This document shows, piece by piece, positions 1,007 through 61,686 of a stretch of DNA of 64,000 nt. Numbering within the stretch: position 1 is the first letter of the stretch; each line of letters begins with the position of its first letter. Below the pieces are notes generated by a model. That model was not told where the DNA came from. It made no database searches and saw nothing but the letters and a program-made list of their open reading frames with translations. Location of the stretch: contig CAJINV010000004.1 of the NCBI GenBank assembly GCA_905178155.1, positions 2,673,513 through 2,737,512 on the forward strand, read 5' to 3'. The position numbers were made by a program, and so were the translations under genes. Origin of the DNA: Amoebophrya sp. A120. Taxonomy: Eukaryota > Protista > Dinoflagellata.

Positions 1007-3973
1007 CTATGAACTGGTAAACACACCGTCAATCTCGTGAATGATCCCGTTCCAACAGCGCACGGTTCGCACGATGTTGCAGCTCCGGTTCCCCACGGCG
1101 ACCTTCCGGTCCAGGCCGTAAAAGTACTGGTCCTCGAGGCAGTGCTTCACAAACACGTCGAGTTTTTTTATCCTATGTAAAAACGTCCCCACCCCATAGT
1201 TGTAATGCAAATGCGCAATTACAGGAACATTTGTAATGCGCATCTCCATTACGGGCATTTCCGATCGTGTTTTGGACTTTGTAGTGCTGTAAACCGGATG
1301 GCAAGCTAGCTTTCTCATGCGGCTGCCCTTGCTAACAAGCACTACACTGCAGATGGGAACTTGTCATGCACAACGCCCAAAGCTTGGAGATTTGTGTTGC
1401 AGATAGAGCAACTTGACTATGGGGCGGGGACGTTTTCGCTCAGGATATTTTTCCGGGGATTTTCCAACGTCCGCAGTTCTGCCCCGCCGAACGTGCTCTC
1501 GTTGATGCCGTAGGGGAGATGCCGGCGAAACCGGCCCTCCAGCAGCGCGTACTGCACTTCGCTCGCGGACTGGTTCGCGACCAGCTGGTAGGGGTCGATT
1601 TGGGGCTGTTCTGACTGCTCGGTCTGTGCGAGTGCACAACTCACCCTCCCCCTCATTTGTAATGCAAAATCCCATCAAATCCAATTGCTGCCTTGTCCTT
1701 GTGGCGCTGCTTGCATTACAAAGTCTGCAAACCCAAGCGCATGCAGCACTGCACTCAACGCGTGAGCTTGTAATGCGCAGCATCCACAAGTATTGGTCTT
1801 TGTGTTGCTGTTCATGCCATAGAAATGAGTGGGAGGAGCGGGACTTGTGCACTCTCATACGGTCGTGTGTAGTCCACGTGCCCGCAGGGGTCCGCCGCCT
1901 CCACCCGGTGCACCTATTTGTCCTGCAGCTGGACCGCCTGGTTCTTCTTGCAGCTCTCCTGGTGCAACAACATCTCCACCTGCCAGCCCCATTTTTTCCC
2001 TTGCCATCTGCTCCGTCTGCTCGCTGATGCTGGCCCGCTGCATGGATTCCGTTAACAGGTTCTTTTGCACCGACGACAGCTCTGTACTGGGGATCTGACC
2101 CACGTACTCCGGTAACCGGTACCCGGTGCGTGCCGTGCGAAAGTGTATCAAATACAAACACGTCTGGATCTGGAAGATTGATGCGAGATTTGTCATGTTA
2201 GTCTGGCATCATGTTCATGACTCTGCGCCCTGTATTGTGTGGCCACCAAGTAGAGGTCCGCTTGCCGGTAATGCAAATGCGCAGCTTCTCATGCGAAATA
2301 CGCAGCACAGACGCACAAAAAAACTTGTCATGCTTGGCGGCGCATTGCAGAGCACTTATTGCTCCTCACGGACTTGCATCACAAGTTTCCAGACCCAGAC
2401 ACATTTGCATTTGATAAAGTGCTTCTCGTAGCAATCCTCTATGTAGCCGTCCATCAGCGCGCGCTCGGGGTAGACGTACGAAACCGGCTCCGAAGAGAGA
2501 CACTGAAACGTCGCGTGATCATCGTGGCCACCACTGCGAGAGTCGTCTCCAAAGTAGTTGTTTTTGTTGAGCGCAAGAAGCTGTTCTTTTTGTCCATCGA
2601 AGAACGAGCTGGAGTTGTCTTCGTGCTCCTCCTATCCAGTGCAAACATGTCTGGGCCCGGAGTAAACTCATGATGCTGAGTGGAAAAATCATGAGCAGGA
2701 TGCCACAAGTGACGGCTCGGCGTGACAAGATTCTGGGTTCTTGCTAGGTGTCGTCTAATATCCAGCATGACAAACTTCTGCGTTTTTGCATGACAGAAAT
2801 AAGCCGTGGCTCTTTGGTACTAACCTACATGATAGACTTGAGAATCAGGTCCGGACCCGGAGCTGACCATGCTAGCAGAGCATGACAAACTTCCATCCTT
2901 CCAGACCACCCAAACATATTTCCGATGCATACCTCCTGCATCCGCTTCTCCCGTTTCAGATCCTCTAAATAGTTCAGAAGTGCAAGTTTCTTCCGTGCGG
3001 CCTTCTGCGTCTTCGGGTTCGGGTCAGTTAGCTCGTTTTCGAGTTCCTGATCCTGGGATCGCTGTTCGGCGTAATAATCTCCCCACCAGCGTCGATTTTT
3101 GCCTTGTTTGTCGCTCGGTAAGTTAAAGTTTCTATTCCCCAACGCAGGACCATCGTTGTCAGTCGCAGAAATTGATGCGGCCCCATTCTCCGCCAAGGTC
3201 GCGACGGCGTTGTACGAGTTCACCAGCTCTGGAATGTCGAACTTTCCCAACACGAGGTGTCGCTTCAGAAATCGCAGCAACAAATCCGGGTTGTCGCGCA
3301 TGGTCTGCCACGAATTTTTCCCAATTTTCGCAATCGCCTCGTTATTGGGCACAAACATCGTGAACGGACCGCTGGTAGAAATCAAATTCAGCAATCTACT
3401 CGTGCAGGCAATTCTATTTCCTGGTCCTGCGCCTTCGGCGTCACCGATCCCAACTCTTCCGCGAAAGTTTCCGTCGTAGGAGCCGTCTTCACGTGGTTCA
3501 CCCTCTAATCCCAAAATAGGAGAAGAACTGTTATCAAGCCCGTCATGATCATCATGTGAGAAAACTAAATCCTCCAGCCGGCCGTGTTCCAGAAACTTTT
3601 TCTCCCGCCTCTGCTTCGTCCGAAAGTCCACCTCGTTGGTGAGCAGTTTCCCCTTGGACAGCAAATTGTACCAAAGCGAACACCGCTTCACTTTCGCCGT
3701 CGCGTTCACAATCGTGTCGCGCCGGCTGATGTCGTGCACGTGCTGGTAGTAGGCCAGCGCGTTGTGCTTGGCGTTCGGCGTGTTGTGGTGAAAGCCCTTG
3801 TAGACCGCACCGCGCTCCTGCCGTGGCGTGTAGTTTTTCGTGAAGCGCCCATTACACTGCGCCGGACAGACCTTGGCGTTACTGTTCCCCCCGTTACTGT
3901 GGTTGTGGCCCATACCACGCAAAATCTTCGAGAAACGAAAGATGCCGCCGAAGCAGCCCGTGGCTTCTGACAT
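1007..3973 (-). CDS. Fasciclin (FAS1) domain protein, 5 exons (3973-2932, 2627-2417, 2140-1860, 1619-1448, 1163-1007)
   Basis: FAS1 H1 GPFTMFVPNNEAI, LKRHLV, and H2 CWNGIIHEIDGVF; removing four TAT..ATA elements plus one 5-bp repeat each gives a continuous frame (MQE|EHED, EKHF|RTAR, LHTT|EQS, PRK|KLDV). Confidence 0.8.
1169..1447. mobile_element. Introner, family F
   Basis: TIR TATCCT..GTAAAAACGTCCCCACCCCATAGT; TSD TTTTT; no GT-AG possible. Confidence 0.9.
1625..1859. mobile_element. Introner, family B
   Basis: TIR T(G/A)TG(C/A)GAGTGCACAA; TSD CGGTC. Confidence 0.9.
2146..2416. mobile_element. Introner, family C
   Basis: TIR TATCAAAT(A/G)CAAA..GTCTGG.TCTGGAA; TSD AAGTG. Confidence 0.9.
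2633..2931. mobile_element. Introner, family C
   Basis: TAT..ATA ends; TSD CCTCC (sense GGAGG permits GT-AG). Confidence 0.9.
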
Positions 3974-4030
3974 ATTTGAGGTTTCTATAGAGAAGCGATT
4001 ATGTTTATCATTATAGTTGATTAATATATT

Positions 4031-4485
4031 TATATAAGGCAAACTTTGGGGCCGGAGAGGGTACGGTAGAGGTTGGGGAGAGGTTTCGTAGAGGTTAGAC
4101 AGAGGGTCGGAGAGGTAAAGTAGAGGGTCGACAAAAACAAGAGGGTCGGGGAGAGGTAAAGGGAGAGGGTACGGAGAGGGTCGGGAGAGGGTGCGCAGTA
4201 TAGGGACCCGTATAGCGGCGCTATACGCGCGCAGAGGGTCGGTAGAGGTTGAGTAGAGGTCAAATAGAGGGTGGGGGGAGAGGGTGTAGAGGGTCGGAGA
4301 GGTTCCACAATATAGGGCGACCCTCTAAGCGACCCTCTACCGCGACCCCCTCCGGGAGCCTCTATTTTACCTCTCGGCGGACCCTCTCGGGACCTCTTGG
4401 ACCCTCTCCCGGACCCTCTCCGAACCTCTCCCGGACCCTCTCCGAACCTCTCCCGGACCCTCTCCGGGACCCTCTACCAGAACCG
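4031..4485. repeat. Inverted pair of short-unit arrays (AGAGGGTCGG-like, then CCGGACCCTCT-like)
   Basis: 4050-4300 repeats AGAGG(G)T(C)GG; 4320-4480 repeats its reverse complement ACCCTCTCC(C)GG. Confidence 0.85.
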
Positions 4486-5919: not shown

Positions 5920-5967
5920 TTGATCTTCTACACTCTCAGCGGGACTTGATCTTCTACACTCTCAGCT
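5920..5967. repeat. Short tandem duplication
   Basis: CTTGATCTTCTACACTCTCAGC occurs twice. Confidence 0.8.
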
Positions 5968-6324: not shown

Positions 6325-7559
6325 TACTACGTTGAAAACTTCAAGAATAAGAAAATGAGCAAAATTTGGTGTTTAGAATTCAAAACGGTAAGGCGCCGGG
6401 CGCCCTGTTTTTTGTTTTTGTTTTGGATAGCGCTTGGCAGGTCGCGAGGCATACTACTTCAAAACTATCAGAAGCAGAGGACGCGACACACTGAGTGTTT
6501 TATCGCGGCCGCCTACTTCTCGATATGAAAAAAGGGAGAGGCAGGCCTGGCATGGAGCCGGCCAACGAAGACGGGCCGAGGGCTACCAACCTCACGCGCC
6601 AAACTAGTTAGCTAGGTGTGGCCCTTCCTGGAACATTCGTGACCGGGGCCCAATGGGCTCGGGTCGTTGCGTGGTCCGAATGGACGAGGCGCGGCGGCGC
6701 CTCCGCAGGCAAGCGAAAAGCGACCCGAAGTTGCTGAAATATTACAGCAAGCTTCTGCGGGAATGCCCGAGCAAAGACATCGCCAGGGGACTCGATACAG
6801 GCGCTCTTTTTTGCATTCCGCCCGTGATTCACGCAAAATTTTGCAGTTCCCGATGGGAAAAATTGCAAGAATGAACAGGGTCGACCCCTAGCGAAGACCC
6901 TAGATTTTGGCCATTCCCGAAACGGCTTTTTTCCCACTTCCCGATGGAAAAAATTTCAAGAATGAAAAAGCAGACCCCTCCGGCGACCCCTGGCGCAAGG
7001 GGTCGCCCAGAGGACTTTATTGCTTACTTTTTGCTCAAAAAACGCACTTTTTGAAGTTCGCCCGATTCGGAAATCGATTTTGGAGCCACGCGGCGCCGCA
7101 ATTGTGGACGCCCAAAATGCAGCCCGTCGGCGAGGGGAGTCCCGCCCTGCTAAGGGTCCGGATTGGGCGTGCAAATTGGGCGCACTATTTTAGGCGCCGA
7201 AAAACATGGCCCGGCATTTGGCAAACTCTAGCAAAAGGGCGCCGCAAATGTAACGACCCCCCATTGCCCAGCTCAGGTCTGCTGCTTGCCGCCGTCAAGA
7301 AGAGCCGGCTTTTTGGATTGAGGGGGCTCTGCCGGTTTCTCTCCAAGTACAAGCGGCGCCTCGTGGCGATGGTTGGCGAAATGATGTCCCGGCCGGATGC
7401 AACCCGGCCGAGCCCAAGGGCGCCGCGTGCTGCTTCTGCGCTGCCGGTCGAGCCGCCGGCGTCGTGTTTCGTCGATCTTGGAACCCCTCCCGGCCACCCT
7501 AAAGACTCTAAAGACCGAATTTTGCTCGTTTTCTTATTCTTGAAGTTTTCCACTCAGTA
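6325..7559. mobile_element. 1.2-kb non-autonomous TIR element, TAC...GTA ends, 5-bp TSD
   Basis: Left GAAAACTTCAAGAATAAGAAAATGAGCAAAATTTGGTGTTTAGA matches the reverse complement of ~7505-7550; GGCGA at 6320-6324 and 7560-7564; GC-rich interior with no transposase ORF. Confidence 0.85.
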
Positions 7560-12686: not shown

Positions 12687-14611
12687 CTAAGGCGCAGGTG
12701 GAGGCGGTGGCGGCGCGGGGGGCTGTGGTGGTACTGTCCCGCTCTGGGGCATACTCATCATTTGCATCATCTGCATCTGCGTGGCCATCATGTGCTGGTA
12801 AGCGGCCCCCTGCTGAGCGGCGCTGCTCACCGGAGACACAGCATTTGCAGCAGCTGGAACTGGTGGTATGGCAGCAGCAACTCCTGTACTAGAAGAAGTT
12901 GATGTTCCTGTTGTATTTCCTCCCGCTACGCCCTTCATAGTCGCGTTAAAGTTCGGGGGAAGCGGGGCCAAAGACGTTGAGGGGGGACTACGCCGTGGGC
13001 TGCGGGACCGAGAGCGCACGCTGGCGGCTGGTTGAGGGACTACTCCTGTAACAACACGACTTTGTGGTGCGCCAATTCCTCCTGGCACGCCCATACTCGA
13101 GGCCGTGGCGGTCGCGGCGAAGGGAGCGCTGCTCTTGCCTCCAGTCAAGATCGCCGTGGAAGTAGATGATCCACTTCTGTTGTTCGCCGCCGCACTGGCT
13201 GTATTTGCAAACATGTGGTAGGGCAGGTTGGTGACCACCCGGCCAGCGGCTTTGGGGACTGTGCCCTCGGGCGGGGGCCCCGGAATCACGCTGTTTTGCG
13301 GGCCCTGGATGGAAAAGCCCTGCATATGAAATGCAAAAATGTCTGGGTCTGGAAGATTGCAACTTGTCATGCTGTTTTTGGACTCTAAAAAATTTTGTAT
13401 TGCATGACCAGCAAGAGGGACACCGTTTGTGCTACACGGGCAGGGCATTTCTCATGCGGAAGGTGCATCAGGAAGCCCTCTAGATGTCTGCGATGCTAGG
13501 TCATGCATTACAGGCATCATGGGTCATGAGAAATATGCATGACAAATCTCACAACCTTCCAGACCCAGACATTTTTACAATCCATACTGCACGGGAAACG
13601 GCAACAGAGGGCGCTGCTGGTTCATGTGCTGCTGTGGTTGTAGTGGTCCTGCTCCGAACATACCAGGTTGCATCACGAAACTGTTCGGGCCGCCCATCAT
13701 GCCTGCTCCTCCCCCCGCTAGTACACCTCCCACGCCCAGTCCTGCGGGCGGCACCGTGAAACCTGCCGCAGTTCGGAGTTCCGACGTGCCGTGCGCGTAG
13801 TGGCAGTTGTCCCCCCACTGACAATAGCCCTTCAAATGTTTCTGGCAGATCTTCGTCTTATACAGGTGCTCGCGGCCCGCGAAACAGGCGGGAATGGGCC
13901 GGTTGGCCGGCGGCCCGGTGAGCGCGTTCATCTGTTGCTCGCGGTCCCGTTCCTCTTTCGTCACCTCGCGGACGTGAGGACCACCACGACGATGATGGCC
14001 CCCGGTAGCGGAGGTTGACGCTGTGCCATTCGCGTAATTCTGCTCGTCGTCACTACTGTCGTCGCCGCTGCCGTTGTCGTCGTTGCCGGTCGCTGCTTCC
14101 TCGTCGTCCTCCGAATCCATCCAGGCGAACTCCCGTTTTTTCTTCTTCTTTTTCTTCTTCCCGGAGTTCATCCCTTCGCCCTGCTCCTCTTTCGCCTTTT
14201 TCTCGAGAAGCTCCTTGGCCCGCTGTAGCCGCTCCTCCCGCTCCTCCTTCTCGGTCTGTTTCCGGAAATCCTCCAGCTCTTTCTCGGTCAGCTAAAAAGT
14301 GATGAAGGAAAGTTTGTATAAAATTCATTAGAGAGGACAGGGGCCGTGCTGCCAACAGTGGTAGTAAAAATGCAGTTGTATCTTCAAACATCAATGAAAC
14401 AATCTCTCTATCGCTAAAACAGGGTACGTAGATATTAAACATAGAATCTTGTTTCATCTACCTGTGGATTTATATCGTCATTGACGGCTTTGTCCTCCTC
14501 GTCCTCCTTTACTTGCTCTCGCCAGTCTTTCGCCTTGCTTTTGACTGTGGCACCTCCAGCACCCACGACGGCTCCCCGCTTTGCGCCAAGCGGGTTCTTG
14601 CGGCCAAGCAT
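12687..14611 (-). CDS. CCCH zinc-finger RNA-binding protein, 3 exons (14611-14462, 14291-13587, 13319-12687)
   Basis: YKTKICQKHLKGYCQWGDNCHYAHG (C-x8-C-x5-C-x3-H); canonical GT-AG intron 14292-14461; introner removal gives FPVQ|GFSIQ; Pro/Gln-rich C-terminus. Confidence 0.85.
13325..13586. mobile_element. Introner, family C
   Basis: TIR with TGTCTGGGTCTGGAAG; TSD CTGCA. Confidence 0.92.
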
Positions 14612-15519: not shown

Positions 15520-18500
15520 TCAGTCGAAAACCAGACCCGGATCTCGAATACGATCGCCTTTATCTTCTTCAAAACCTCGTCCGCCCTCCGCTGCACTCCG
15601 GACAGGCCCGCACGGCACGCTGGTCCGCGGGATTCCAAGCGGACGCGGGATGCTCGCGAGGATCTGGTGGAGGGGGGTGGTATTACTGCCCCTCGTCCCA
15701 GCTCTCGCAAGGTCTCGACGTCCTGGGGTGATCGGATTCCGTCTGGCGTCAAGGCCCGCTGGGTGATGTTGTTCTGCTGCTCGGTTATTTAGTGCTGCGC
15801 TCGTCCCGGGGCTCCATCTCGAGGGGGCCACATTTTGGTTCTTGGGCTGTCTTTTGTTTTCCTCGCAGCCCCTGTTGCTCAGATGCCTCTGCTCGTGTTC
15901 GTCAGAACTTCTCGCATGGAACAAAGTGTGAGAGGTCTTGTGATCCTCGAAAGCCTCCACCCCACCTGGAGAGTCGTTCATCTGGCGGCAACTCAACACT
16001 GGGACCACGTCGTTGCGGGACCGCAGCTCCGGATGGAAGTCCCTCGACGGGGACGATGAATACTGCTCCTGCAACATCTGGTGCCTCAGCGGCTGGTGCC
16101 TTTGCGTTTGTTCAGACAACTTGCTGGCCGCGTGGTTCACTTGCATTAAGCTCGCAACACTTCTACTTGTTTTAGAACTGTCCTCGTCCATCACCGGCGA
16201 GCCTAAATCCGGGCGCACCACTTGCGGCTCTTCGGCTGCCGAAGTCACGTACCCGCGACGCACTGATTGCAGGCTCTTCCTGGTGCTTCTCAAGTCGTTG
16301 TAAATGGGGTCGTTCAGGTACATAGGAGGCTGGTGCAGTTGTTGTTGGGGAGTGTAGTTATTTTTAACCCGGGACATGATCACGCCAGCACGACCGGGAG
16401 GTGTCGCAGCGGTTGTCGAGGAACTAGCTGCTCCTGAAAATTCGCTATTTTGAAGAAACAAATTCTTCGACGCCACTTCTTCTGCAGCGCTACTGCTGTT
16501 CATCCGGCAAGCTGCACCTTGTTGGGTAGAAGACACAAATTGTAATTCCGGCGGGGGAAGTGAGTAGGAATTATTGTGGGTCCAGCTTATGCTAGCTTCT
16601 TGCTGTGGAGGATGCATACGCAACGCGCCGTCGTGGGGCCCGTAAGAACCAGGACTCATCCGGCGTTCGTGGTCGTAGGACTCTGTCGGTGAAAAAGGAA
16701 GTTCACACACATCTTGATTCCATGCGGCTCGCTGCTTCGTCTCGCGCAGGTCGCGCAAATCGTACGTCGGTGGCAGTTCCCGGCGCGGGGGGCAGGAAAG
16801 TTTGCGCGGCAGCTGCAGGGAGGAAGGGGTGTAAGACGCGTCATTTTGAACGAGGTCATTTCCACGAGCTGCTGTGCGCGTCATCCTCTTGAGTGGTTGC
16901 TGTGTCGTCGCGCCGCGCAGGTTATTTTCCTGTGTGTCTTCGTGCTGGTGAGGCCTACGTAATTGCAGAGACTGGAGGTCGTGTGGGTTGTTATCACCAC
17001 TCCTGTGCGCAGGATCGCGTTTTTGATATTGCTGCACCACACGACCCTGGAAAACCAATCCGGGCTCTACTTGAGATTCTTCGTTACAGAAGTCCACGTC
17101 CTGTATTTCGCTCCGATATGGTCCTCGTGGAAGCTCACGACCTCGCTGCAACCCCAAGCTGGCTTCGTCAAGCCCCCGCCGCTGGGCCTGTTGTGCGGTG
17201 GTCGCAAGATGTTGTACTGCATGAGCTTCGTGCCCACGTCGCTGCTGCTGGTGCTCTCCCACTCCCCCGGGTCCTCCCGGAACTGTGTTGGGCACAGGAA
17301 TGTGGTACGGCTGCGCGCCGGCGACAGGGTGGATTTGGTGTTCGTGAGATGAAGTGACGGCGCCGTGGTTGTGCAGCTGCTCCACTCCGCCACCCCTCCC
17401 AGTAAAGCCTGCAGACGAGGAGCTTGTTGCAGGCGACAGCGGCCCGCTCCTGCGGTCCATGTCTTCGTAGTTTTCATCTTGTCCCCTCCTGTAGTGCGAA
17501 GCAGGTACGATCGACGGTCGCGGGTGATGTTGCTGCACCACTATCGTCACCGGAGGCGGCGCTGCACGAGGACCAGGAGAATTATGCTCCTGCGCGTAGA
17601 AATCACAATTAGCAGCTCTTGTCTGACTCTGCTGGCTTTGCTTCTGCATTTTGCGCCCTGCACGAACCGGACTTTGGTCGCGCTCCTCGTCAAACAGCCG
17701 CCTGCTATGGGAGTGTCAGGATTGAAATCGTCAAAGTTGAAATAGTTTGGCATGCAGAAAATCCAACGCAAAGATTACCTCTGTTGCAGAGGACGCAAGG
17801 GAGGCAGATTGTAGTGCAAGCAAGGGTCGAGAATTGGGCTGCTGACTAGCATCACAGAGGGGGGCCCCTTTGCCCTGAACAGCATGACAAACTGGCTTCC
17901 GGTACGGACGAAATTTGTCATGCGCCGACTAGAAACTGTGGGTCCAATTGGTAATCCATTTTATGCATGACAAATCATTTCATTTCAACTTTGTCGATTT
18001 CAAACCTGACGCTTCCATACCTGCCGTGCTTCCCGTACTTCGCATGGGCCTCCGCCAGCAGGCGCGCGGCCTCGTCGGATGGGGAGAAAGCTGGAGCAGC
18101 CCGAGTCGTTGCCGACGAGGGCTGCGTGTTGAGGGTTGTAGGTTTGTCAACGCGACGGCCGGATAAAGATGTTGTGGTCCTGACGTCGTGGAGGTCGGGA
18201 GGAATATAATTTTTAACGTGCTCTGGTACTTGATGTTCCCGTTTCGGAGTGCGCGGCGGATACACGCTGTAAAGTTCCTCGTCCTCGTAGTGGGCCGTCC
18301 CATGATAAGGGTCGTCGTAGTACTTCTCCTCCTGCTTATTTTCGGTCCTGACAGACGACGACGAAAACAAATCTTGATCTTCGCCATCAGAAATCACCGC
18401 CTGGAGTAGCTGCTGTTTCTGTTGCTGGTGCTGGTGGTGATGTGCGCCGCGTCCTGTTCGTCGTGCGTGATTCGTCTGTTGACCACCACCACATCCCGGA

Positions 18501-27658: not shown

Positions 27659-28864
27659 AGTGTCGATCTATTCAAGTTATTTCAACAAGTACTGGAGGGG
27701 ATAAAACAAGATGCGGAGTGTCTGTATCATTGGCGGATAAGAAAAACGACTCTGTTGCCAGCTTTACTATTATGCCACTGAAGGCACACACACCTTAAAT
27801 CGTTACACGGTCCTGTGTCGTGAAAGTTAAGCATTTTTTTGCAGCAGCGACGGTCATCCATCGTCGTCAAAAAATGATGAAGTCTAACATTCAATAATTA
27901 AAGGGGGTCCTGATGTTGAATCATGAAAAAGCACAGCGGCCGGTGCGTCTAATTTGACGGGCATCGACGTCGACAGTGTCTAACTGCTCGACGTCGACAA
28001 TGTTGTCTAGAGGGTTTACTACTTGTCCGTTTTGTTGCACTAAATTCTTTTGCTCTTTTGACTTTGTAAGTACCTATTTGCCTTTGCTGTTTGAACAAAA
28101 ACGTAGTGAGCTGCCTTTTCACAGCATCTAAGTGTTGCGGCTGTTTTCCCAATTCAAAAAAATCCGAAATATCAACCTCATCCTCTTCAATTGTCGCCAA
28201 ATATGCCAAGTACTCTTTTTCTGTAAATTTATACACCATGGCTGCGGCGAGGGAGAACTAAAACGAAAGGCTTTAAGTGTATACGTGCATACTTTTAGCA
28301 GGGTCAGTTTTTTATTTATATAGCCGGGAAAGATGGCAAAAGGGTTTTTTTGCGTAAGCAGGGTTGTTGCATGAAGTGGGGGGCGCTGCGGGTGTTAGAA
28401 GGAGCAAGCAGGCTGGGCTGGATGTAGGAGGGCAGAGCTGTCGTCTGGCCTTTCGCGTGTGCAGCAATAAGAAAAGTAAGCGAAGCCTCTCGCGTCATGA
28501 CAGAAAAAAAAAAGCCTGCCCGAAAACGAAATCAGCTTTGGGCTTGAAAAAAAGACAACAGGTCTGCTCGTAATATTAAAGAAAGCCACGGCCTTTGCCT
28601 TTCGTTCTTTGTTTTGAGTTTTGCACTCTATATCGTGTTCGATTGTCAATTTAGGTTGCTTGTGATATGTTTCGCTTGATGACTGACCCCGCTACGTTTC
28701 GAGGACGCAACCAGCCAAAGTCACCACAAAGCGAAAAAACTTTTCGTGTTTTTTTCTCTTTAGTACACACACGCCAACAGATCGGCGCTTTGCTCAGCAA
28801 CAAGCTTTTTTTACACACTGAAGCAGGAATGTTCTCGTTGCAAAAATGAGCAAGCTTAGTCGCT

Positions 28865-29140: not shown

Positions 29141-29230
29141 GTATATAGATTTATATTTGCCTTTGCTGTTTGAACAAAAACGTAGTGAGCTGCCTTTTCG
29201 CAACACCGCTTTATTGGTTAGTGAGAAAGC

Positions 29231-41600: not shown

Positions 41601-44358
41601 ACAGAATTTTATGTATGTTTTGCATGACAAATTGGATGCGGATGGGTGTTTTTTCCTGGATATCAGACCCGGTGCTGCTCCGGCGATAGTCGGGCTTCAT
41701 CTGGAAAAACTGCCCGCTCTCGATCTCGGGCTCCTTCCACCCTATGGAATCCACATCCTGTAGCAGCTCGATCTTTCGCCACTTTCGGCTTGTCGTGGCA
41801 GAAACCTGGCCCCCGGGCGCAGCAGCACTGAGATACAAGGAGGCGTAGTCGCTGGTGGCGTTGCTCTGGCCCTCCGGGAGGTCCTCCATCAGGATTTCGT
41901 CGTTAAAAGCGTGCTATCACGTGCAAAAGTATCGGACTCGTAGTAATGATCTTCGCAACTACTATATATAATGCATGACAAATCTCCAGCTCTCCCAAAA
42001 TAAAAAAAAAAAACAGCATGACAAATTTCCTGTGTCGTGCTGAGCACCTAATTTGTACTATTGCAATTCGACGAGTAGGAGTGCGATAATTTTGCAATTC
42101 ATACGTGCTTCCCGATCAGTCCGCAAGGGTAGCGCAGCACCGTGTCTCCGTCCGCGTTTTTTTCGTACAGGGCCTCGGCGTATCAAATGCAAAAATGTCA
42201 GGGTCTGGAAGATTGCCAGGCTTGTCATGCATATTCTGCATGACACATGAGGTCTGTAATGCATGCACTAGCGTCACAGATTTTGAGAGGGCTTCCTAGT
42301 GCCTATTCCGCATGACAAATGCCCTATCCGCGGCGCACAAACTGGAGTCCTGTTGCTGGTCACCACGCAATACAAATTTCTTTTGAATGCAGAGACAGCA
42401 TCACAAGTTTAGAATCTTCCAGACCCGGACATATTTGCAATGCATACGGCGCAAGACTCGCCCGCGGCGGCGGCCTTGCGGTACTCGTCCGGCGTCGTGT
42501 AGGTGGACACGGAAAGCTGCGTGACGTCCTTGCTGTACACAAACCGGCGGAGATTCTGGTGGAAGCCCCGCATCCCGTAGTACACGTACAAGTCCTCGTC
42601 GCCCGGCACCGGCTCCTTCAGCTTCAGCCGGACCTGAAAGGCGGTGTATCATTTGTAAAAACGTCGCCACCCCAGAGTCAAGTTGGGGATTTTGCAACAC
42701 AAACCTTGAAGTTTTGGGAACCACGCATGACAAATTGCAGGCTGTAGTGTAGTCCAGTTTAGCAAGGGAAGTTGCATAAACAAATCCATCTTTTCATCCT
42801 GTTTTAAGTTTACAGCATTACAAGTTCCAAAACACAGTGGGAAATCGAAATGCCTCTCAAAGGGATGCGCATTACAAAAAACAAACGCTCTTGTGCTTGC
42901 AGATCTGCATGACAACTCTGGGGTGGGGATGTTTTTACACAGGATACGGTGGTCTTAAACTTCTCCTTGTCCGCGTTGGGGTATGAAAGTGCACAAGCCC
43001 CTGCTCTTCCCCATATTTGTATTGCATGGACAACTCAATACAAACGCTCGCACCTGTGGAGCCAGATGTGCACGAATGCGCATAATGTAGTACGGCTTGG
43101 GCTCCTTCCGGAATCTGCCAACATCCAAACAGTACCACTGAGCAGCACTAGGATTTGGTATTTTGCATGACAAATGAGGGCGGGGAGGGGGTGGAGTTGT
43201 GCACTGTCATATGGGGCCGGAGCCACCGACCTTGTCGATGAAGGTCGCGACGTTCTCTACGACAACGTGGACGGGGTCATTTTCCAAAAACGCACTCCCG
43301 TCGGATACGATGAGCCGCTGCGGCGACGTCGCCCCGTCCATTCCGGTGTAGTCAATGGCAACCCGGAGGACGTTCGCGACACTGGCGATGATGGAAACGC
43401 CGATGATGAGCAGAAACAAGGACACTGCGTAGGTGAGCCGCACCACGAGCCGCGGCGTCATCAAAGGATGCCAGGACTTCAGCTTCTGTTGCGTGAATAT
43501 GCACTGCAAAAGTATCGTACTCGTAGTAATTGCGAACCTATATCCGCGTATACAAATTTCATTTTTCATGCTGAGGGTATTATTTGTCATGCGATTTCTA
43601 CTAGTACGAGGCTTGTTTTGCATTTCATAGTGAACCGCCACCAACAGCTTTTCACGCTAGCATTTGTTGACGTTCGCACACGCTCCGGCAGCGAGACGTT
43701 CGTCGACGACCCAGAGGTAGTATGAATTGCAAAAGTATCGCACTCGTATAAATGCATTACAAATTTCCGCAGCATGATAAATAAAATTTGTAATGCAGAT
43801 TTGCCTTAAGACAAAGATTTGTAATTCAAGACTTGCATTTATACGAATACGATACTTTTGCACAGGATAGGTAGCGGTCGCCGCGGACTGCTGGTTTGGG
43901 GGCCTCGTTACTATGTTGTTGGGCGGTGGAGGATTTATCAAGTCACTAGCACTACCCTCAGGAGCCGTGATGTTTCTTGCACGCAGAACATCTTCTTGAT
44001 CAATGCCATCGCTCGCTGCATAATGGTCTCGACCTTGGTCGCTGTCACGCGGCAAGTTTGGTGGCTTGATGGCCGAGGCAGAGAGCTCCTTGAGGTGGGC
44101 GCCACTCGACGTAGTTGCACTCGCTTTTGTCTCCCTATTTCCAGCTGTGGGGCTCGCTGCTCTCGGCATGGCGGGCTCCGGCTCGGGTGAAGCAAAGTGC
44201 TGGTCACCAGCAGTCAGGTCACTGCTTGGAGGAAAGGCCTGCTGATCGTGTTCCGCCTCGCCCGCCGCGGGAGAAAGCCTTATGTTTGGCGAGGTTAAGG
44301 TCGGGGTGCGGTCTCGAAACTCCTGGACCACGTCCGGCGCTGTCATGATGCTCGACAT
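38602..44358 (-). CDS. CDC50: CDC50/LEM3 family (P4-ATPase flippase beta subunit), 16 exons
   Basis: FTQQKLKSWHPLMTP + TM1; LYVYYGMRGFHQNLRRFVYSKDVTQL; FTIWFHIAATNVFTKLWGKV; KEIIIGTASWVGSRNRRLGFFFL + TM2; RRVGDVRYL. Confidence 0.9.
38824..39174. mobile_element. Introner, family C (long)
   Basis: TSD GCGAG. Confidence 0.88.
39254..39497. mobile_element. Aged introner (TSD lost)
   Basis: TATCA..CAGGAA..AA.TGCA.CAC TIR; removing the element plus 5 nt gives SEH(I)|SKEIIIG. Confidence 0.75.
39532..39680. mobile_element. Introner, family A
   Basis: TSD TGGTC. Confidence 0.92.
39721..39934. mobile_element. Introner, family J
   Basis: TIR TATC.C.AGAAAAAAGTG..ACAGTTACACA; TSD TCCTT. Confidence 0.92.
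40039..40349. mobile_element. Introner, family I
   Basis: TIR TATCAA.A.G.AAA.TCCC..C.CCCCATATC; TSD AAAAA/AAAAG. Confidence 0.88.
40410..40666. mobile_element. Introner, family C
   Basis: TSD CCTGT (sense ACAGG permits GT-AG). Confidence 0.9.
40700..40848. mobile_element. Introner, family A
   Basis: TSD GACTG. Confidence 0.92.
41296..41483. mobile_element. Introner, E-related
   Basis: TSD CACTG; TAT..ATA ends. Confidence 0.85.
41555..41662. mobile_element. Introner, family H (108 bp)
   Basis: TIR TATCCA..GAAAAAA..CCCATCC; TSD TCAGA. Confidence 0.92.
41915..42103. mobile_element. Introner, family A
   Basis: TSD CGTGC. Confidence 0.88.
42181..42446. mobile_element. Introner, family C
   Basis: TSD CGGCG; interior similar to 13325 and 47880. 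Confidence 0.92.
42647..42946. mobile_element. Introner, family F
   Basis: TSD CGGTG; interior similar to 25316. Confidence 0.92.
42982..43211. mobile_element. Introner, family B
   Basis: TSD TGGGG. Confidence 0.92.
43498..43629. mobile_element. Introner, family A
   Basis: TSD GTGAA. Confidence 0.92.
43721..43869. mobile_element. Introner, family A
   Basis: TSD GGTAG. Confidence 0.92.
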
Positions 44359-44699
44359 GAGAGCGGATGGAGAATGTTCTTTGTGAAGATTGCAATATTA
44401 CGTCGTGTAAACCTAAACAATTCATTGACGTACGTCAAAATTTATTGGCTGTAACTGTAAGTATCTATAATAACTCGCGAAAATTAAATTTTTCTTTTTG
44501 TTTTTGATAGATAAACAAAGACCGCCAACCAAGAAAGATACACGACACAACGAACAGACCGATCGTGCGGAATGAACATATGTACTTAACTTACGCCCCT
44601 TGCCAGTGAAGATGAAAACATCAAATCCGGCATCTTCACAATAGACCAACTAGCCTTGAATTTTTCATGCGTAGCTGCGTATTGCAGTGCGTACGCCAT

Positions 44700-44749
44700 T
44701 CACTTTTAGCATTACAAGTCTCCAGACCCAGACATTTTTGCAATCCATA
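44700..44749. mobile_element. Solo right end of a family C introner
   Basis: AGCATTACAAGTCTCCAGACCCAGACATTTTTGCAATCCATA with no matching left end found. Confidence 0.7.
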
Positions 44750-50891: not shown

Positions 50892-53800
50892 TCAGGTAAC
50901 CACCTTGCTATTTTCCCTGTCCCATCCCTGTTCGTTAATGCCGATGTGTCGATTTGGGTCGTTGGCCGCGATTTGGTTTGCCTCCGAGCAGTGAAGCAGA
51001 TTGACCAAGGAATGGATGTATCCTGTGTAAACAAATCAACAACAGCATCGTGGTCTTCTACCCGTGTAAGTAGTACATTTTTACATCAACCCGATGAGCT
51101 TCCATCCAAGCGTTGAAGTTTCAAGATTTTATTTTAGATTCGTCATGCAAATGCATAGACAGATCACAGCATGGTGCACAGGGAAGAACTCGTGGCTATG
51201 CAAGCGGCGGTAATAGTGAAAGCGTTGTTCTTGATGGTTGCACAGGATATGTCGTTCAGCGCGTCGTGAAACTCGTCCGCAGTGAGGAAGGTCAGGTCCT
51301 GCTCCAGGTCTAGGAGTATGCAATGGATGAAACGTATTTGTTCGCACTGGTTGTATGAATCGCTATCGCATGAGCATGACAAACTCTTGCAAGAATTAAA
51401 TAAGTCCGTGGATTTGCATGTGCTATTCCACGCCGGCGAAGACAACACTTGACGTCATGCATGACTGCATCAATTCTTTGTACGAGCGCGACACATTTTC
51501 TTTTCCAGGAGGGATACGGAGCTGCGTGAAGCTGTTGCCCTGGACATCCCGGCCACCGCGTACCAACCGACTGCTCTCTCCCACCGCCATCTTTTTCGTG
51601 AACACATTCCGCCGGTTCTGGTTCGGCTTCTGCTTGTTCAGCTGCATCTTGTTTTTCTCCTTGTCAAGATTATACTGCGCCACCGCGATATGGATGTGTC
51701 AGAATCGAAATTAACCAAATCGGAAAACTTGTGATGCACAAAATCGATGCCAGTTAGAGCCTCAGTTTTCAAGTGGCGCATGAGAAATTTCGGGAGCACC
51801 AAGATCCAGTCTGTCATGCTGTTTGGACGAAGAAGACTGCTGCTGTCATGCTACTCTGGCAGCACATCGTCTTCCCCTAAACAGGCCTGCTATCGGTCTC
51901 ATTTGCCTGCTCCCCAACACAGGCCTTGCGTGCCCATCATTTTACGCATTGCAAATTTTTCGACTTTGTCGATTTCGATCCTGACGCTTCCATACGCGAA
52001 GGGGTCAAATTTGAGCGCCCGGTCGAAGTAGTAGGTTTCGTTCAGCATTTGCTCGTACACTTGCTGCTTGCGGACGAGCTCGGATGAATTTTGCTGCTCT
52101 ACATCAACATCATGATCATCTTCTGCGGATGGCAATGGCAATGCTGGATCGCGGCTCGGCGATCCACCAGCGTCGCTCTCTTCCACAGCAACGCTCCCAA
52201 AGGACGACGCGAGTGGCAGGCGCCCAATGAATTCCGACCCCAGTTGCTGGGGTTGGCTGAAGGCAACTTTTTTAGACGTAGTTGACGAGGAGCTGGTCTT
52301 TGTACTTCTATGGGATAGTACAACCGGTGTAGTTGTAGTTCTACTACTTGAAGGCGCGCCGCGATGAGGACCTGGCGGTCCTCGTGAAGACGCGTCGTCC
52401 TCCGAAACAACAACAGGTGGCGCTACAAAGGATTCACCGGCAGCACCGGCCGCGACCTCGTCCCGCTCCTGGTCAAACATGAAACTGTGCATCAAATTCT
52501 GTTTCTGCGACCGGCTCATGTGCAAGGAGAGTTCGTCGAGGTAGGTTCTTCTGGGTAAAAAACGGGTCTTCGTCAGCTCGCGCAGCGGGCGGGGCAGAAG
52601 CTCCGTTTCGACGGAGAAGTCTGTGGTCAAAGCGAGCGCGAAGGATAGCGCACCAGTGAGAAATTTTTGCGCGTCCGAGTGCAGAAAACTTTCAAAAATC
52701 AAACTCGCCCGCTTTGTGAATAGCGAGTCCACGGGCCAAGGCTGGGTGCCGTATGAACTGCAAAAGTATCGCACTCGTATAAATGCATGACTCAGCATGA
52801 GAAACAGAATTTGTCATGCGGATCTACGTTAAGAAAAAGATTTGTAATGCATGACTGCAATGAGAATTACTTTTACTGCGAGTAAGGTACTTTTGCACAG
52901 GATATGCCGCCCGTTTCGACGATAACGTGGTGGAGAAATTCGGAGAGTGCCTTTTTATCTAGTCGGAAAATCAGGTCAGGAAGGGACCGGATAATTTTTA
53001 TTTTTTTGTCGACAATAGCACTACTTTGGCTTTCGTCTGGCTCAGGTTTATGATTTTCTACTGAAGATGCTGCAGCGCCCGGCGCGGCCGCGCTCTTGGT
53101 CAACACCGCGGCTCCATCCGTTGTGGCGAACCGTCGCAGAAGCTGGGAAAAGGTTTCAAACTTGAGCACTTGTTCAACTTCGACAGCAACATCTATTTCC
53201 TCGGGTACTGTTGTAGAAGTCCCTGCGCCGGCAACATCAAGTAGATCAGAGCGGCTCTCTCGCCGGAGCCAGGCCACCTCCGCCTCTGAAACTGGCGCGA
53301 ACAGTGCGTCGAGTGCGACCAGCAGTCTCGGCTTTCCCGAGCGCTGCATTTGGTGAAGCTGAAATTGGTACTTGTCGGGCAATATCCTGTGCAAAAGTAT
53401 CGTATTCGTATAAATGCAAGTCTTGCATTACAAATCTTTGTCTTAAGGCAAATCCGCATGACAAATTTTTTTTCTCATGCTAATGCATTTCTTTATACGA
53501 GTACGATACTTTTGCAGTCCATAGGCAAACAGCTCTTTTCCGACAAGAGCCACTCATGGTATCGCTCCACCGTCGTGGCGCTTTATGCAGGGCAACAGTG
53601 AAAAACAGTGTCCTCGCACGACGACGTAAAAAGAATTGCATTTACAAATTGAGTCGTTCTCGTCTGCTTTCGAGAGGCATTAGAAAGAACACTAATGGAA
53701 CCTGTAATGCCGATTTTGCTTGGCAATGGGAACAAGAAAGCTTGTGGCCGTCAACATGCATAATTTCAAATTGCAACTAGAGTCCGAGGACGCACTATAG

Positions 53801-55935
53801 ACTTTTACACCAGAACACGTGCGTACATTTCTGCTCGAGAAGTACCGCACTCCCGTGGCGGCGCAGAGAGCCACGACCTCCTTTCGCCAGTTCACAAACA
53901 TCTCCGCCATGTACTTCCGTTATCGTAAGGAGAAACTCCCCCTGCCCATACTGAAAAGAGACACTTCTGAATATTTGCGATGCTGATTTGCAGACGCGAA
54001 TCGTCTCTGTATTGCAAGAAAGCAAGGCCAGAGACCCCGCCGCGCTTTGTGGGCGCAATTTGTAATGCTGTAGGGCGTGCAGAGGATAAGCCTCCCTCGC
54101 TAGGCGCCTACACCAAAAAGGCCCAGCTCAGGCTTTGTATCTGCGCGCGGTGAGACCTCTACGACTACTGCAAGACAAAGCTGATTTGTGTACACAAATC
54201 TTGCATCACAGATTTACGATTTGATACGGGGAGGGAGGATTTTTCATTTTGATATCCGCTGCATTTTCACGAGGGAGAAATTCCAGAACTCCTGCGGAAG
54301 GAGATCCTCTTCAGCGTGGTTTCCCTTTCTTTCGGGAGAAGAAAAAGGGACTTGCTCATTTGCTTGGTCCTCTGCAGGACGATCGAGATGACGATCTTCT
54401 GCAGTTCCAATTATCTCGCTGGTACTACCACTTTCCAATTCACCGAGTAGCCGAACGTTTTTCCGCAGCTGCGTGGACTTTCGCTTTTCCCCCTTGGTCA
54501 GCAGGTGATCGTTGTCGCGCGCCATGTAGAGCATGCCCTGCGAGACTATCCAGAAAAAAACACCCATCCCCATCCATATTTAGCATGACAAACACTGCAC
54601 TTTATCCAGGTTTTGCATGACAAATTGGATGGGGATGGGTGTTTTTTCCTGGATAGAGACCGCCCAGACCAAATGCAGGGAGATCGCGCGGAACCACATG
54701 TGGCCCACGGGAAAGACAATTTTGTGGTCATACTGCGACTTGCGCAGCTGCGTCACCTGCACCGTCTGCTCCATCACGGAATTCCCCGGGTCAATCACCC
54801 GACCCTCCACCGCCTCGCGCCAATGGTCGTAGGGCACCTCGCCCCACTTGTGCTGCCAAAAATGGTCCGCAGAATCCATATCCGAGGCTTGCTTCGGGGT
54901 CAGGGAAGCGGAGGATGGTGGTGGTGCGGATAACAACGTTTTTACATCTCGGCTTCCGGAATATGGAGCATGAACATGATCCGAAAGATGAACAGTAGTA
55001 CCTGCAGGAGGACCAACATGACCATCATTGGGTGGAAATTCCGGTACTGCCTCAACGTGATTTGATGTTATCGCGGATGAAGCAGGTCTTGTAGTCACCG
55101 TCGTTGTGTAGTACGGCCTCCGTCGCACTCCCTTCGCGTGTTCCAACAACTCCAGCTTCCGCGGGCGCCACTCCGTGCGCGCAATCCTGGACATTTCGCC
55201 TCCGCACGCCCAGAAGAAGAGTTTATCAAAGCCGCCCTTCACGTGGCCAATGTTTTTCAATGTCTCCTCCGCGAAACAGGCGAAGGCGGCGTTGGCGAAA
55301 ACGGTGAACTGCATCTCAAACGTGCGGGAATTCCACCCGGGAATCGCGTAGTGGGCCAGGGAATCGAGCCAGTAGTCCCGCGGGAGCCGGGAGCTCGCCG
55401 CGCACAAGGAGTGTGGCTGGAGTACGGCCAGCTCATTCTCCCAAATCACCGGAAACACAAAGTCCGGATCAAAGCGCGCCACATGCACGTCGTCGAGCAG
55501 AACCAAAACATAGTCATAGTAGGTTTTGTTTTCATAATTTTCGCTTTTTCTGTTCGTGGTTCCGGTTCCTACCCCCTTGATAAACTGCTCATACGCGTTC
55601 CACAGAGCGTTCTGGTAGTGTGCTTGTTCGTTTCGCACCACGGCGCAGCGATGCACGCCGGTACCGTTGTGCGGAGGGGCTGGGGGTGAGTGCGTGGCGC
55701 GCGAGGTGGTAGCAAGGCCGCTGTCGTGGAGCTCTTGTGTATGTGTATGAACGATCCGCTCCAGGTCGTATTCTTCCCTTTTTCGCCAAGTGAAAATGGC
55801 ACAGTCCACGTCCCGCGCCGAAAAATATTGGCTCCGGGAGAAGCTGTTTTGCAGCGTCTCGATGCTCTTTTTCAAATACGGCCATCGCTCCCGGTCGCCG
55901 TGGCCGGGGACCAGAATTAGAAAGCGAAACTGCAT
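50892..55935 (-). CDS. Large protein with an N-terminal DUF707/glycosyltransferase-like domain, about 9 exons
   Basis: YYDYVLVLLDDVHV..FDPDFVF..LAVLQP..FEMQFTVF.NAAFAC recalls DUF707; frame restored across 7 introners; one intron at ~53584-53800 is unresolved. Confidence 0.6.
51019..51249. mobile_element. Aged introner
   Basis: TATCCTGTG(T/C)AA TIR; TSD degenerate; frame restored. Confidence 0.75.
51317..51516. mobile_element. Aged introner
   Basis: TSD AGGAG/CGGAG; frame TQLR|DLEQ. Confidence 0.8.
51689..51994. mobile_element. Introner, family D
   Basis: TSD CGCGA. Confidence 0.92.
52752..52904. mobile_element. Introner, family A
   Basis: TSD TGCCG. Confidence 0.92.
53383..53523. mobile_element. 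Introner, family A
   Basis: TSD GGCAA. Confidence 0.92.
53921..54254. mobile_element. Introner, family I
   Basis: TSD TCCGT/TCCGC. Confidence 0.88.
54547..54655. mobile_element. Introner, family H (109 bp)
   Basis: Near-perfect TIR TATCCAG.AAAAAACACCCATCCCCATCCA; TSD GAGAC. Confidence 0.93.
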
Positions 55936-59126: not shown

Positions 59127-61686
59127 CTACAACTCGTGCACCATGCCGTCGGGCGGCTTCAAGTCTGCCAGCCCGTTGCGCCACATCATGAACTGCCAGA
59201 CCTCGTTGTCCTTCTTCGCCCAATCTGGTCGCTTGTTCGCGTACTCTTTCACCGGCGACCACTCCGCGTGCCCGGTCTTCAAGTCCACATCCACTTCCGC
59301 CGGAACTTGCTGCATGTACCGTGCCAGTGAACGCATGTTTCCCGTTATCCAGGAAAAAAACTGTGTAAGTGTGAGCTTCTTGGAAGAATAGCATCACAAG
59401 ATTGCTCCGCATGACACAGAAAACCTGTCATGCGTAGCTAGTACGTGAAAAGGAAAACACGCACGAAAATTGCCTCTGATGCATGTCCAGCACGACAAGT
59501 ATAACAGTTTTGCATTTTCTGCAACACAAGTTTACACTTACACAGTTTTTTTCTTGGATACCCGTGTCCGGCTTCAACCGCAGGGTTTCCGGGTACACCT
59601 CGTAGCTTATGAGAGTGCACAACCCGACGTCCCCCTCGCCCTCCCACCGCCCCTCATTTGGTATGCAAAATCCCAAATCCACTCTTTGCCCTGTGGCACT
59701 TCTTCCATGCCAGACTCCCGAAGCCCAAACAGCATTAGAATCGGTCGCGCTGGACTTGTCTTGCAAAACCTGCATCTGTGCCAGCACTTGTGTTGCTGTT
59801 GTTGCCATCCAGGTGCAAATGAGAGAGGCGGAGTAATTGTACTTGTAGTTGTGCACTCTCATATAGCTCAGCGGGGGCGGCGCGCCGGAGCCCGGGGGAA
59901 ACTTATCCTTCAGCTCCTTCGGGTACAAAAAGTCGACCCAATCCCGACACGCGTTGGGCCATTTTTCACAGGCGGATTTGTTCGCCAAACTGTCCAAATC
60001 ATTCGGGTCCTGGGCGGTGTGTCGTGTGGTGACAGAAGAGGACGACCCGATCACTTCGCGGAGCTTTTTGTACAGCAACGGAATGCCGATCGGCCCGTTG
60101 TCGGGCGGTTTCGTCGCGCCGGAAGACAACCGCGTCACTGGGTACTGCGGGACGCTTTCCTTTCCCAGATTTGCCAGCGCCGCGGTTTCGTCCGCCGACT
60201 CGTCGATCTCCTGCTGCGGTGGGTGCAACTGGCTGGTCGGGTTGTTTGCATCTGCTGCATTTGCATTTGCGGCACTTGTAGCTCCGGCCATAGAAGTAGT
60301 ACCAACACGACTCGGATCGTCGTCGGCAGTGGTGCTATCCGTTATCGAGGGCGCGACGATCCGGACGGCGGAGACCGTGCCGCTTTCCGGCAGTAACTCC
60401 ACGTCGCTTCCGCCACAGAGCTTGGTGAAAATTCGGGTGTCGTCGTCGTCGGAGAGGTAATTCCAGGGCGACGCCACGGTCGTCATGGTCCAGTGCGTGC
60501 ACTTGGGGGTGTTCTTGCACAACACCGCGGCATCCCTCGCCTCAAACACGTTGGGCGCGACGCGGAGGGTCTCGTGGCACGCAGTCTTCGCGTTCGCGAA
60601 GAGGAGCGTGCCCGGGTCGACGGGGTGCGGCGGCAGGTGCAGGGAGTCCTATGCATGGCAAATGTGTCTGGATCTGGAAGAGTCCGAGATTTGTCATGCA
60701 GTTTTTCCAAGCTCCACCAACTTTGGAGTGCAGGGCGTACTTAGCATCACAGGTTCTGCGGTGCCTTGGTAGTGCCTATTCTGCATGAGAAATGCCCTCT
60801 CAGCATGGCCAGAATTAGAAATGCAAATGAGCAGCACCGTTTGCAAGTCATGCAACACAGATTTTTGTGTGATCCCCAAGACGCATCACAAGTTCGTACT
60901 CTTCCAGACCACCCAGACACATTTGCATCTAATAAGTCCCGGGCCTTCACGAGTCCGGCGTGGAATTTCTTCTCCACCTCCGTCGCCTCCTCCGGTATGG
61001 GGCTCTCAAACGTTACACTCTCAACTGTTGCAAAAATTTGTCATGCAAAAACAGCCAAACTGAAAGGGGGATCCATCCGTGTCTTGCATTACAGATGATT
61101 TGGCACGGATTCCTAATGGTAATTTTGCATCACAAACTCATGCAACAGTTGAGAATGTAACGCTTGAGAATCCCATATCCGGCAGCGGCGGGTTGCGGTA
61201 GTCCGCCCGCAGGACCCGGTCGTAGTGCTCTCCAGAGGTGACATTCTCATCCGAGTCCAGATCAAACCTGGTCCCCTCCATCAGGGTGACGCTCTGCCGC
61301 TTCGAGTCCCACGCAAAGTACCGGCAGCGGGGCGCCTTGTCGCAGAGAAGGCTGGCGTCGTTGAGACTTTTCACCTCGTTCTTGGTATCGACGTACTTCC
61401 CGTGCGTCGTGTCCGGCACGGCTTTGAGCCCCTTCAACAGCAGCGGCTTCTCGAAAAAGTCCGCGTACTTCAGCGTGAAATGCCGCCGCAGCGTTTCCTG
61501 CCGCTCGCGGCGCTGCTGCGCGGGGGAAACGCCGTCTGGCGTGGTGGGCGAGGGCGGCCTGATACTCTTCGCCCCGATTGGGGGGTAGAAATCCGGCGCC
61601 AGCGAATGGCTCTGCAGGAAAGCGCCGAGGCCTTGACCCATAGTTGATTGGAAGTGGTGAAAGAGGGAGTTGTTGACTCCCCCCAA
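59127..61686 (-). CDS. Protein with two PAN/apple-like Cys motifs, at least 5 exons; start uncertain
   Basis: ASLLCDKAPRCRYFAWD and AAVLCKNTPKCTHWTM resemble the PAN core CxxxxxCxxF; joins PPLSY|EVYP and DTG|NMRS checked in frame; four introners delimited. Confidence 0.6.
59346..59560. mobile_element. Introner, J-related
   Basis: TIR TATCCA.GAAAAAAACTGTGTAAGTGT; TSD CCCGT. Confidence 0.92.
59608..59863. mobile_element. Introner, family B
   Basis: TIR TATGAGAGTGCACAAC; TSD TAGCT. Confidence 0.92.
60650..60934. mobile_element. Introner, family C
   Basis: TSD AGTCC. Confidence 0.92.
60996..61177. mobile_element. Introner, family K
   Basis: 37-bp TIR TATGGG..TCTCAA.CGTTACA.TCTCAACTGTTGCA; TSD TCCGG. 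Confidence 0.92.

Follow-up and report, generated by a model that had tools for sequence, protein, structure and literature searches.

Introners of Amoebophrya sp. A120 carry a helically phased 12-bp word that most likely belongs to transposition, and a likely splice code of three terminal bases

A stretch of 64,000 nucleotides from Amoebophrya sp. A120 (GenBank assembly GCA_905178155.1, contig CAJINV010000004.1, positions 2,673,513 to 2,737,512 of the forward strand), referred to here as the window, contains minus-strand genes interrupted by 55 short elements (108-351 nt, spanning 1169..61177) that have inverted TAT..ATA ends, are flanked by 5-bp target site duplications (TSDs) and, judged by their ends and by the shared orientation of the genes, are probably introners of the Amoebophrya A120 type. 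They carry arrays of an internal motif, GCAT[GTC]ACAA, which an initial annotation of the window took to be a signal, independent of the terminal inverted repeats (TIRs), that licenses removal of the element at the RNA level; a subterminal DNA site of the transposase-binding type was offered as the alternative. The first part of that claim stands, in that the motif is a common internal, TIR-independent signal conserved beyond chance, whilst an RNA-level licence for removal is unsupported and the alternative fits best. We conclude that the motif is real and most likely (with a probability of about 0.65) belongs to transposition, its arrays being putative double-stranded-DNA sites for the mobilising transposase or its partner. 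The more striking result is a polar rule at the intron ends, where three fixed bases likely set the splice cut and thereby constitute a new splice code.

GCAT[GTC]ACAA and its complement are present as 105 exact copies in the window, compared with a mean of 2.4 and a maximum of 6 in 30 first-order Markov resamples of it, which bears out the view of the motif as common to many families in both orientations; the elements that had been named as examples (1169, 17706, 41555, 54547 and 60996) do carry the words listed for them. No fewer than 102 of the copies lie inside 52 curated elements that together make up 11,213 of the 64,000 bases, and which were collected without reference to the motif, by searching for inverted TA..TA ends with target duplications and curating by hand. 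Of the remaining three, one belongs to a half element (44709, within 44560..44749, which has one family-1 end and two sites), one (51374) to an aged element, and one (63727) lies clear of all elements. The full word learnt is the 12-mer GCATNACARRTT, of which there are about five sites per element. Scored with a position weight matrix (PWM), sites occur at 18.55/kb in the elements and at 0.37/kb elsewhere in the window, so that the motif is not equally common in the background. The same scan returned no sites in the large intergenic repeats (4020-4560, 6325-7559, 28600-30260 and 56485-57773) or in the canonical introns (14292-14461 and 25975-26202), in agreement with what the annotation had said of them. 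Two of these serve as controls: an intergenic TIR element at 6325..7559, with TAC..GTA ends and the 5-bp TSD GGCGA, and a minus-strand canonical GT-AG intron at 14292..14461. An Rfam scan of the window gave 0 matches.

The sample was widened by scanning metagenome contigs of one public assembly with a three-site pattern, which yielded 143 loci (L001-L143) holding 540 distinct elements, compared with 10 in a reversed-sequence control. Together with the 52 window elements these fall into 13 families and 53 singletons; the annotation's family A and its 24492-type group together as a single family, and family 0 was excluded or filtered wherever the search pattern had selected it. The TIRs are not unrelated, as had been supposed, and the interiors not wholly so: all ends in all families have one 14-nt terminal consensus, TAT[CG]-N6-A-rich, with a TSD of 5 bp (perfect in 351 of 487 copies), and some interiors have stretches in common other than the motif, such as one of 118 nt at 71% and another of 64 nt at 78%. 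When the terminal PWM is compared with the published A120 introner consensus, the inverted repeat likewise starts with TAT followed by seven variable nucleotides and at least three As, and the boundary direct repeat agrees with the published 3-5 nt. At position 3, the middle of the TSD, the copies were observed to disagree about half as frequently as at the remaining positions (20 vs 35-44 of 487), a marginal effect. Coding strands were assigned with a codon model, confidently for 376 of the 540 elements; the model places 51 of the 52 window elements on the minus strand and its calls for one locus concur in 326 of 332 cases. Most families are inserted in both directions. Location is almost exclusively in coding sequence (51/52 window elements), and amongst the 540, from loci chosen near genic copies, a single element, L052 540-792, lacks a coding context while lying well away from the contig ends. 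Viral contigs gave 0 matches to the family-0 TIR. In a gene segment that is repeated in tandem, two different families were seen inserted between similar flanks (L057 3937 and L057 5957).

The arrangement of the sites within the elements is regular. Direct pairs 29-34 bp apart are found in 12 of the 13 families, and those at 31-32 bp account for 17.5% of direct pairs vs 2.0% after shuffling. Distances between consensus sites in nine families, for which 30 period/offset settings were tried, gave a mean cosine of 0.47 at a period of 10.5 (0/2000 permutations), and of 0.42 once the 30-34 bp pairs were left out; the peak lies at 10.4-10.5 bp and the value at 11.0 is 0.06. With period and offset fixed, the held-out families 9-12 gave 0.23 at 10.5 (0/500) and 0.008 at 11.0, and the 53 singletons 0.146 at 10.5 (p 0.004); because they are partly related, the families are not fully independent samples. 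A period of 16.5 bp scores too but fades at the offset that maximises 10.5. The phasing thus has the helical repeat of B-DNA (10.4-10.5, not 11), which points to a double-stranded DNA site. It extends over about 110 bp, the whole length of the short elements, and phasing to the termini is weak (R 0.24 in families, 0.09 in singletons). In three long TSD-flanked copies (631, 753 and 815 nt; four of the seven long TIR pairs, at L011, L019, L027 and L074, were set aside as probable mispairings) the sites lie within about 250 nt of an end only. Copies are therefore found near both ends, in either orientation and at intervals that would suit an array of protein on double-stranded DNA, as in subterminal repeats. 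The word ends in the A-tract-like ARRTT, and in families 0 and 1 the TIR itself resembles it (mean terminal PWM score -5.5/-6.4 vs -25 shuffled), a resemblance that is not seen in most other families. Opposite-strand pairs 15-17 bp apart also recur in several families; at 26566-26590 and 27218-27242, convergent pairs 16 bp apart form a perfect inverted repeat of 12 bp around a spacer of 1 nt.

Removal of the elements was followed in the contigs of runs X3-X6, which derive from one sample and were taken as RNA because a poly(T) end precedes 34619, 14 elements are skipped and an intergenic bin is without coverage. All 14 elements in 34400-41540, on the minus strand like the genes, are skipped in these contigs: the aged element 34815-35022 (intron 34811..35023), which has lost its TSD and holds no exact motif and one degenerate site; elements 35280, 35561, 35969 and 36357 (35280..36507); element 37320-37489 (intron 37316..37490), whose TSD is mismatched; an aged element with one site at 38824..39174; the aged element 39254-39497 (intron 39250..39498), in which the TSD is lost and the best PWM score, 3.5, does not exceed background; and elements 39532, 39721, 40039, 40410, 40700 and 41296 (39532..41483), the last with no exact motif and one degenerate site. 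A further contig skips exactly 1602 nt, the summed length, plus 5 each, of the eight elements from 41296 to 43721. These include a family 3 copy at 42647..42946 (minus-strand gene) that is inserted in the orientation opposite to the copy at 1169, and the same arithmetic indicates removal of the 108-nt family 7 element (the annotation's H) at 41555..41662 (minus), with two sites 32 bp apart. Contigs of X1 pass without a gap across 34815, 38824, 39254, 41296, 51019 and 51317, and the joints listed for X1 are repeat-driven. Of the raw RNA runs, X9 supplied 106 reads and X10 supplied 10, most of which continue into sequence unlike the window, so that they were of no use.

Reading frames point the same way, in that long frames open on the minus strand once an element and 5 nt are taken out. 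The MRE11 gene (22862..27667, minus) has ten elements (23666, 24492, 24870, 25316, 25645, 26514, 26766, 26955, 27157 and 27412) in addition to its canonical intron, its frames are open after removal, and the exon 26189-26512 matches Mre11 with an E value of 1e-28. The splicing of the family 3 copy at 1169..1447 (the annotation's F) is likewise read from the open reading frame (ORF), and the family 5 element at 17706..18019 (D) sits in an ORF of 1172 codons, both on the minus strand. Aged introns with one site each were predicted on the same strand by a frame-based search, at 51015-51250 and 51313-51517 with the search constrained to a -1/+4 pattern and no RNA joint seen, and at 53580..53826 with a 5' end G-TAC. 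Further minus-strand elements are a family 7 element with two sites 32 bp apart (54547..54655) and the annotation's K (60996..61177). Template switching by reverse transcriptase was considered as a source of the joints and rejected, as aged elements with 1-nt junction homology are cleanly removed and removal opens long frames, MRE11 included. Nor does removal use GT-AG, the boundary dinucleotides being diverse.

Since one copy of the TSD is removed with the element, most joints can slide, and the register of the cut is narrowed by those joints at which the TSD is lost or mismatched (34815, 35561, 37320 and 39254). At 34815 the joint 34810/35024, found in 4/4 runs, leaves the options (4,1) or (3,2), and at 37320 the options are (5,0) or (4,1). 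The sole register that fits all 14 joints takes out, besides the element, the one nucleotide that precedes the 5' TAT and the four that follow the 3' ATA, so that the intron takes the form N-TAT...ATA-NNNN; six registers are indistinguishable by ORF length. Aligned in this register, 447 copies (retrieved with profiles lacking the termini, with at least 4/5 TSD positions matching and with the strand taken from neighbours) have +2T in 447/447, +3A in 447/447 and +4T in 435/447 at the 5' end, and -7A in 445/447, -6T in 438/447 and -5A in 435/447 at the 3' end. The difference between the two ends is significant (Fisher p 4.5e-4, 3.8e-3 and 0.012) and, the element being symmetric as DNA, this polarity shows selection tied to the direction of transcription. 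The pairing partners of +2U, +3A and -7A vary in 12, 9 and 12 of the 447 copies, which favours base identity over hairpin pairing. A U2-type GU/AG is not followed, as +1 is G in 139/447 and a terminal AG is present in 36/447. The intergenic control element 6325-7559, with its TAC..GTA ends, offers no -7A in either orientation, which would explain, as one case, its intergenic position with no appeal to the motif; it was also observed to be about 1.2 kb long, with an A-rich position the same as that of the introners and a 218-codon frame without a Pfam hit.

The terminal polarity serves as a positive control that the motif fails when put to the same kind of test. Where a family has its sites on one strand, the strand content of the pre-mRNA flips with the direction of insertion: element 1169 contributes six sense GCAUNACAA-type sites and no complement, element 42647 contributes no sense and six complement sites, and family 7 element 41555 the complement alone. 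Sites are confined to the sense strand in 18 of 427 genic elements and to the antisense strand in 35, so that the same word is not found on the sense strand of every spliced copy. Splicing of element 39254, in which no site exceeds background, is seen in 4/4 runs of the one sample, a single RNA-confirmed case, and further predicted introns are site-free (L014 1200-1468, L059 1184-1594 and L058 1889-2183). In a site-matched comparison the 5' and 3' halves change at equal rates (Cochran-Mantel-Haenszel odds ratio 1.11, p 0.23); an unmatched comparison in families 1-8 gave a strand effect (5.7% vs 4.7%, p 0.036) that is gone in the site-matched polarity test. Four predicted GT-AG introns were also noted to hold 2-5 motif sites (L043 4148-4361, L043 5111-5250, L026 783-1179 and L016 1755-1941), and are possibly introners turned canonical or hosts of decayed ones.

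How fast the motif changes was measured as private changes per column. Motif columns change in 5.0% of cases in families 1-8 and in 3.7% in the filtered family 0, compared with 9.7% and 8.0% for other interior columns and 6.6% and 5.3% for TIR columns, whilst the TAT changes in 44/3108 (1.4%). A clock for the time since insertion is given by TSD pairs, which differ at 177/2435 positions, or 7.3% over two copies. By these rates the motif lies near the post-insertion clock and is yet more conserved than the rest of the interior, with a ratio of motif to interior change that is steady at 0.51-0.55 across quartiles of TIR divergence; we read the half rate as selection in unsampled mobile lineages. 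In two shared-insertion pairs the motif is unchanged, but both were chosen by the search pattern and so carry no information. Genic singletons without a site number 1/30, where a Poisson expectation is 1.1, so that the zero class is not depleted.

The account that we prefer, in which the array belongs to transposition, can be drawn as follows. A protein, the mobilising transposase or its partner, would load the sites cooperatively on one helical face and so bring together the two ends of a short element; the array would be kept by selection on still-mobile copies and decay after insertion, and many families would converge on it or retain it because one protein serves all. Splicing would be a separate, spliceosome-like matter, with NUA as its 5' site (a GUA whose +1 position is relaxed) and a 3' cut set by counting 6 nt downstream from the invariant A, a candidate branch adenosine (-7A). 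As the TIR gives UA at one end and that A at the other, an element could be spliced in either direction without any internal motif.

Several points weigh against this account. No transposase domain was found in a Pfam scan of 113 ORFs, comprising 110 of 119 long unspliced ORFs (nine overlapping antisense frames dropped) and three window ORFs. RNA support comes from contigs of one sample, and one X4 contig runs unspliced through the site-free 39254 (39221-39528). The register rests on four joints with one rule assumed for all, and the option (3,2) fits 13/14; the strands of the metagenome loci are codon-model predictions, and the branch-site logo of 31 predicted canonical introns has no clear equivalent of -7A. 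Intergenic, motif-bearing and unspliced controls are almost lacking (one candidate of 540). The halved rate of change in motif columns, relative to the rest of the interior, also fits continuing selection after insertion. Elements 34815, 39254 and 51019, which had been described as eroded, indeed hold no exact copy, but nine of ten aged window elements examined keep at least one strong degenerate site, 39254 being the exception; the strand and position of the kept site are not fixed.

Some of these points are what would be expected if a host or domesticated protein bound the phased sites in chromatin as a DNA-level mark of introns and recruited the splicing machinery, with the sites redundant and one usually enough. 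Strand symmetry and helical phasing fit such a mark equally well, and the retention of a strong site in 9/10 aged elements is as it predicts; motif columns are twice as conserved as the other interior at all divergence levels, a single genic singleton in 30 is without a site, the unspliced contig crosses the site-free 39254, and the accessible part of one report places putative transposases in A25 only and U1 in neither strain (PMC7789003). We nevertheless hold a DNA-level mark to be unlikely, since 39254 is spliced in 4/4 runs with no site above background, site-free introns are predicted in L014, L059 and L058, the zero class is not depleted amongst genic singletons, and the motif changes at a rate that matches the TSD clock. 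A combined scheme, in which a domesticated transposase-derived protein on the array both spreads the elements and hands them to a U1-less spliceosome whose ruler is N-UA ... A-N6, with no G/AG, is unlikely too. It is rather improbable that a chromatin or architectural protein of the host, acting as neither transposase nor splicing factor, aids the spread or tolerance of the elements by bending, nucleosome placement, silencing or base modification: phasing over about 110 bp does cover the short elements, ARRTT is A-tract-like and no transposase was seen in the 113 ORFs, but outside the elements the word is near chance (0.37/kb), unlike a general host site, the sites of long copies are confined to their ends, and in families 0 and 1 the TIR itself resembles the word.

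Branch sites follow the consensus UnAy, and the variable position of the word is the n of UnAy on both strands, which together with its near exclusivity to non-canonical introns made it conceivable that a protein or guide RNA reads the word on the pre-mRNA, or that the word is a two-way branch point. Such an RNA signal is very unlikely: copies that are spliced or in frame have the word alone or the complement alone, the period is 10.5 rather than 11, and a site-free element is spliced. The two-way branch point in particular was rejected, as the would-be branch A is unprotected at sites towards the 3' end, where it changed in 9/127 and 7/104 cases, the top values of their rows, and polarity is absent. 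Finally, the word might be functionless and common by descent from one ancestral element, for which the single end consensus, the constant TSD length and the shared interior patches speak; word and phasing persist, though, in families that are not alignable end to end and whose layouts and orientations differ, and word columns change at half the interior rate, so that descent alone is largely refuted and carries hardly any weight.

The elements themselves have already been published. According to the accessible text of the reports concerned, A120 introners have inverted repeats that start from TAT, with seven variable nucleotides and then As, direct repeats of 3-5 nt and non-canonical boundaries (PMC7789003, PMC12130899); the nine predominant A120 splice pairs of Table S4 all begin N-T, as our register predicts, and the splice position relative to the hairpin is called variable or unknown (PMC7789003). 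Most A120 families are described as TIR DNA elements of unknown superfamily, one having integrase-like ORFs as well as TIRs (PMC12130899). The one register, the three polar invariant bases and the phased internal array found here are not described in those parts, and neither an internal motif nor a register appears in the sections available of PMC11282704, PMC12005148 and bioRxiv 10.1101/2020.10.14.339549. The motif 9-mers as whole words had no match in a literature search whose reach stopped short of subscription journals, theses and figures. The phased motif and the splice register are thus apparently new to print.

Amongst known systems, again as far as the portions available describe them, the array resembles subterminal repeats. 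Lemi1 binds those of Emigrant, a MITE (miniature inverted-repeat transposable element) (PMC1636448), and the TnpA of IS1535, of the IS607 family, binds helically phased 9-bp repeats (PMC6188088); like these and those of hAT elements, the introner sites are several short copies near the ends in both orientations, with IS1535 sharing the phasing. Unlike them, one word is found in at least 13 families with differing TIR interiors and covers short elements whole. The TA..TA termini recall IS3EU and GingerRoot, and families 5 and 6 start with TATGG, compared with the TAYGG of fungal IS3EU (PMC10045372, PMC12730594), but the TSD is 5 bp throughout instead of the usual 6, and the ORFs scanned held no transposase. 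Nonconventional introns of Euglena have a MITE-like origin and cut offsets of the form N3-CDG ... CH'G-N5-6 (PMC12501133); there too the cut is at a fixed short offset from terminal complementary triplets, whereas the offsets here are 1 and 4 and the constraint is on single bases, with varying pairing partners. Yarrowia, Trichomonas and Giardia have a fixed distance from branch point to acceptor (PMC2483917), the conserved A standing at -6 and -8 as counted from their published consensus and at -7 here; unlike in those species there is no ACTAAC context and no terminal AG (36/447), and -7A is a candidate branch. The likeness to Fritillaria, in which transposon-derived non-GT-AG introns are handled by a changed spliceosome (PMC13326754), is looser than that to Euglena.

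Other repeats were observed in the window. Intergenic foldback-like repeats at 4020-4560 and 28790-30260 have short words of their own (GGAGAGGGT-type, at 11-12 bp spacing, and CTTCWGAAG), which suggests other TIR families with other binding arrays. The canonical MRE11 intron 25975-26202 holds a lone introner end (ending at 26058), perhaps a decayed insertion, and an aged TIR element with one site lies outside the predicted coding frames at 11417-11699. A 44-nt direct repeat, its copies 1100 nt from each other, bounds the region 62460-63700, which contains a broken minus-strand frame that is retroelement-like by eye; its 183-codon piece gave no Pfam hit.

Two questions about Amoebophrya become testable through these results: by what means its non-GT-AG introns, which number tens of thousands, are cut although U1 has not been detected, and which agent mobilises introners that have no known transposase. 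For the former, a three-base rule, N-UA ... A-N6, that is proof against orientation would explain the precise removal of insertions made either way, and would correct gene annotation, in which aligners slide junctions within the 5-bp repeat. For the latter, the phased 12-bp array may serve as bait for the mobilising protein.

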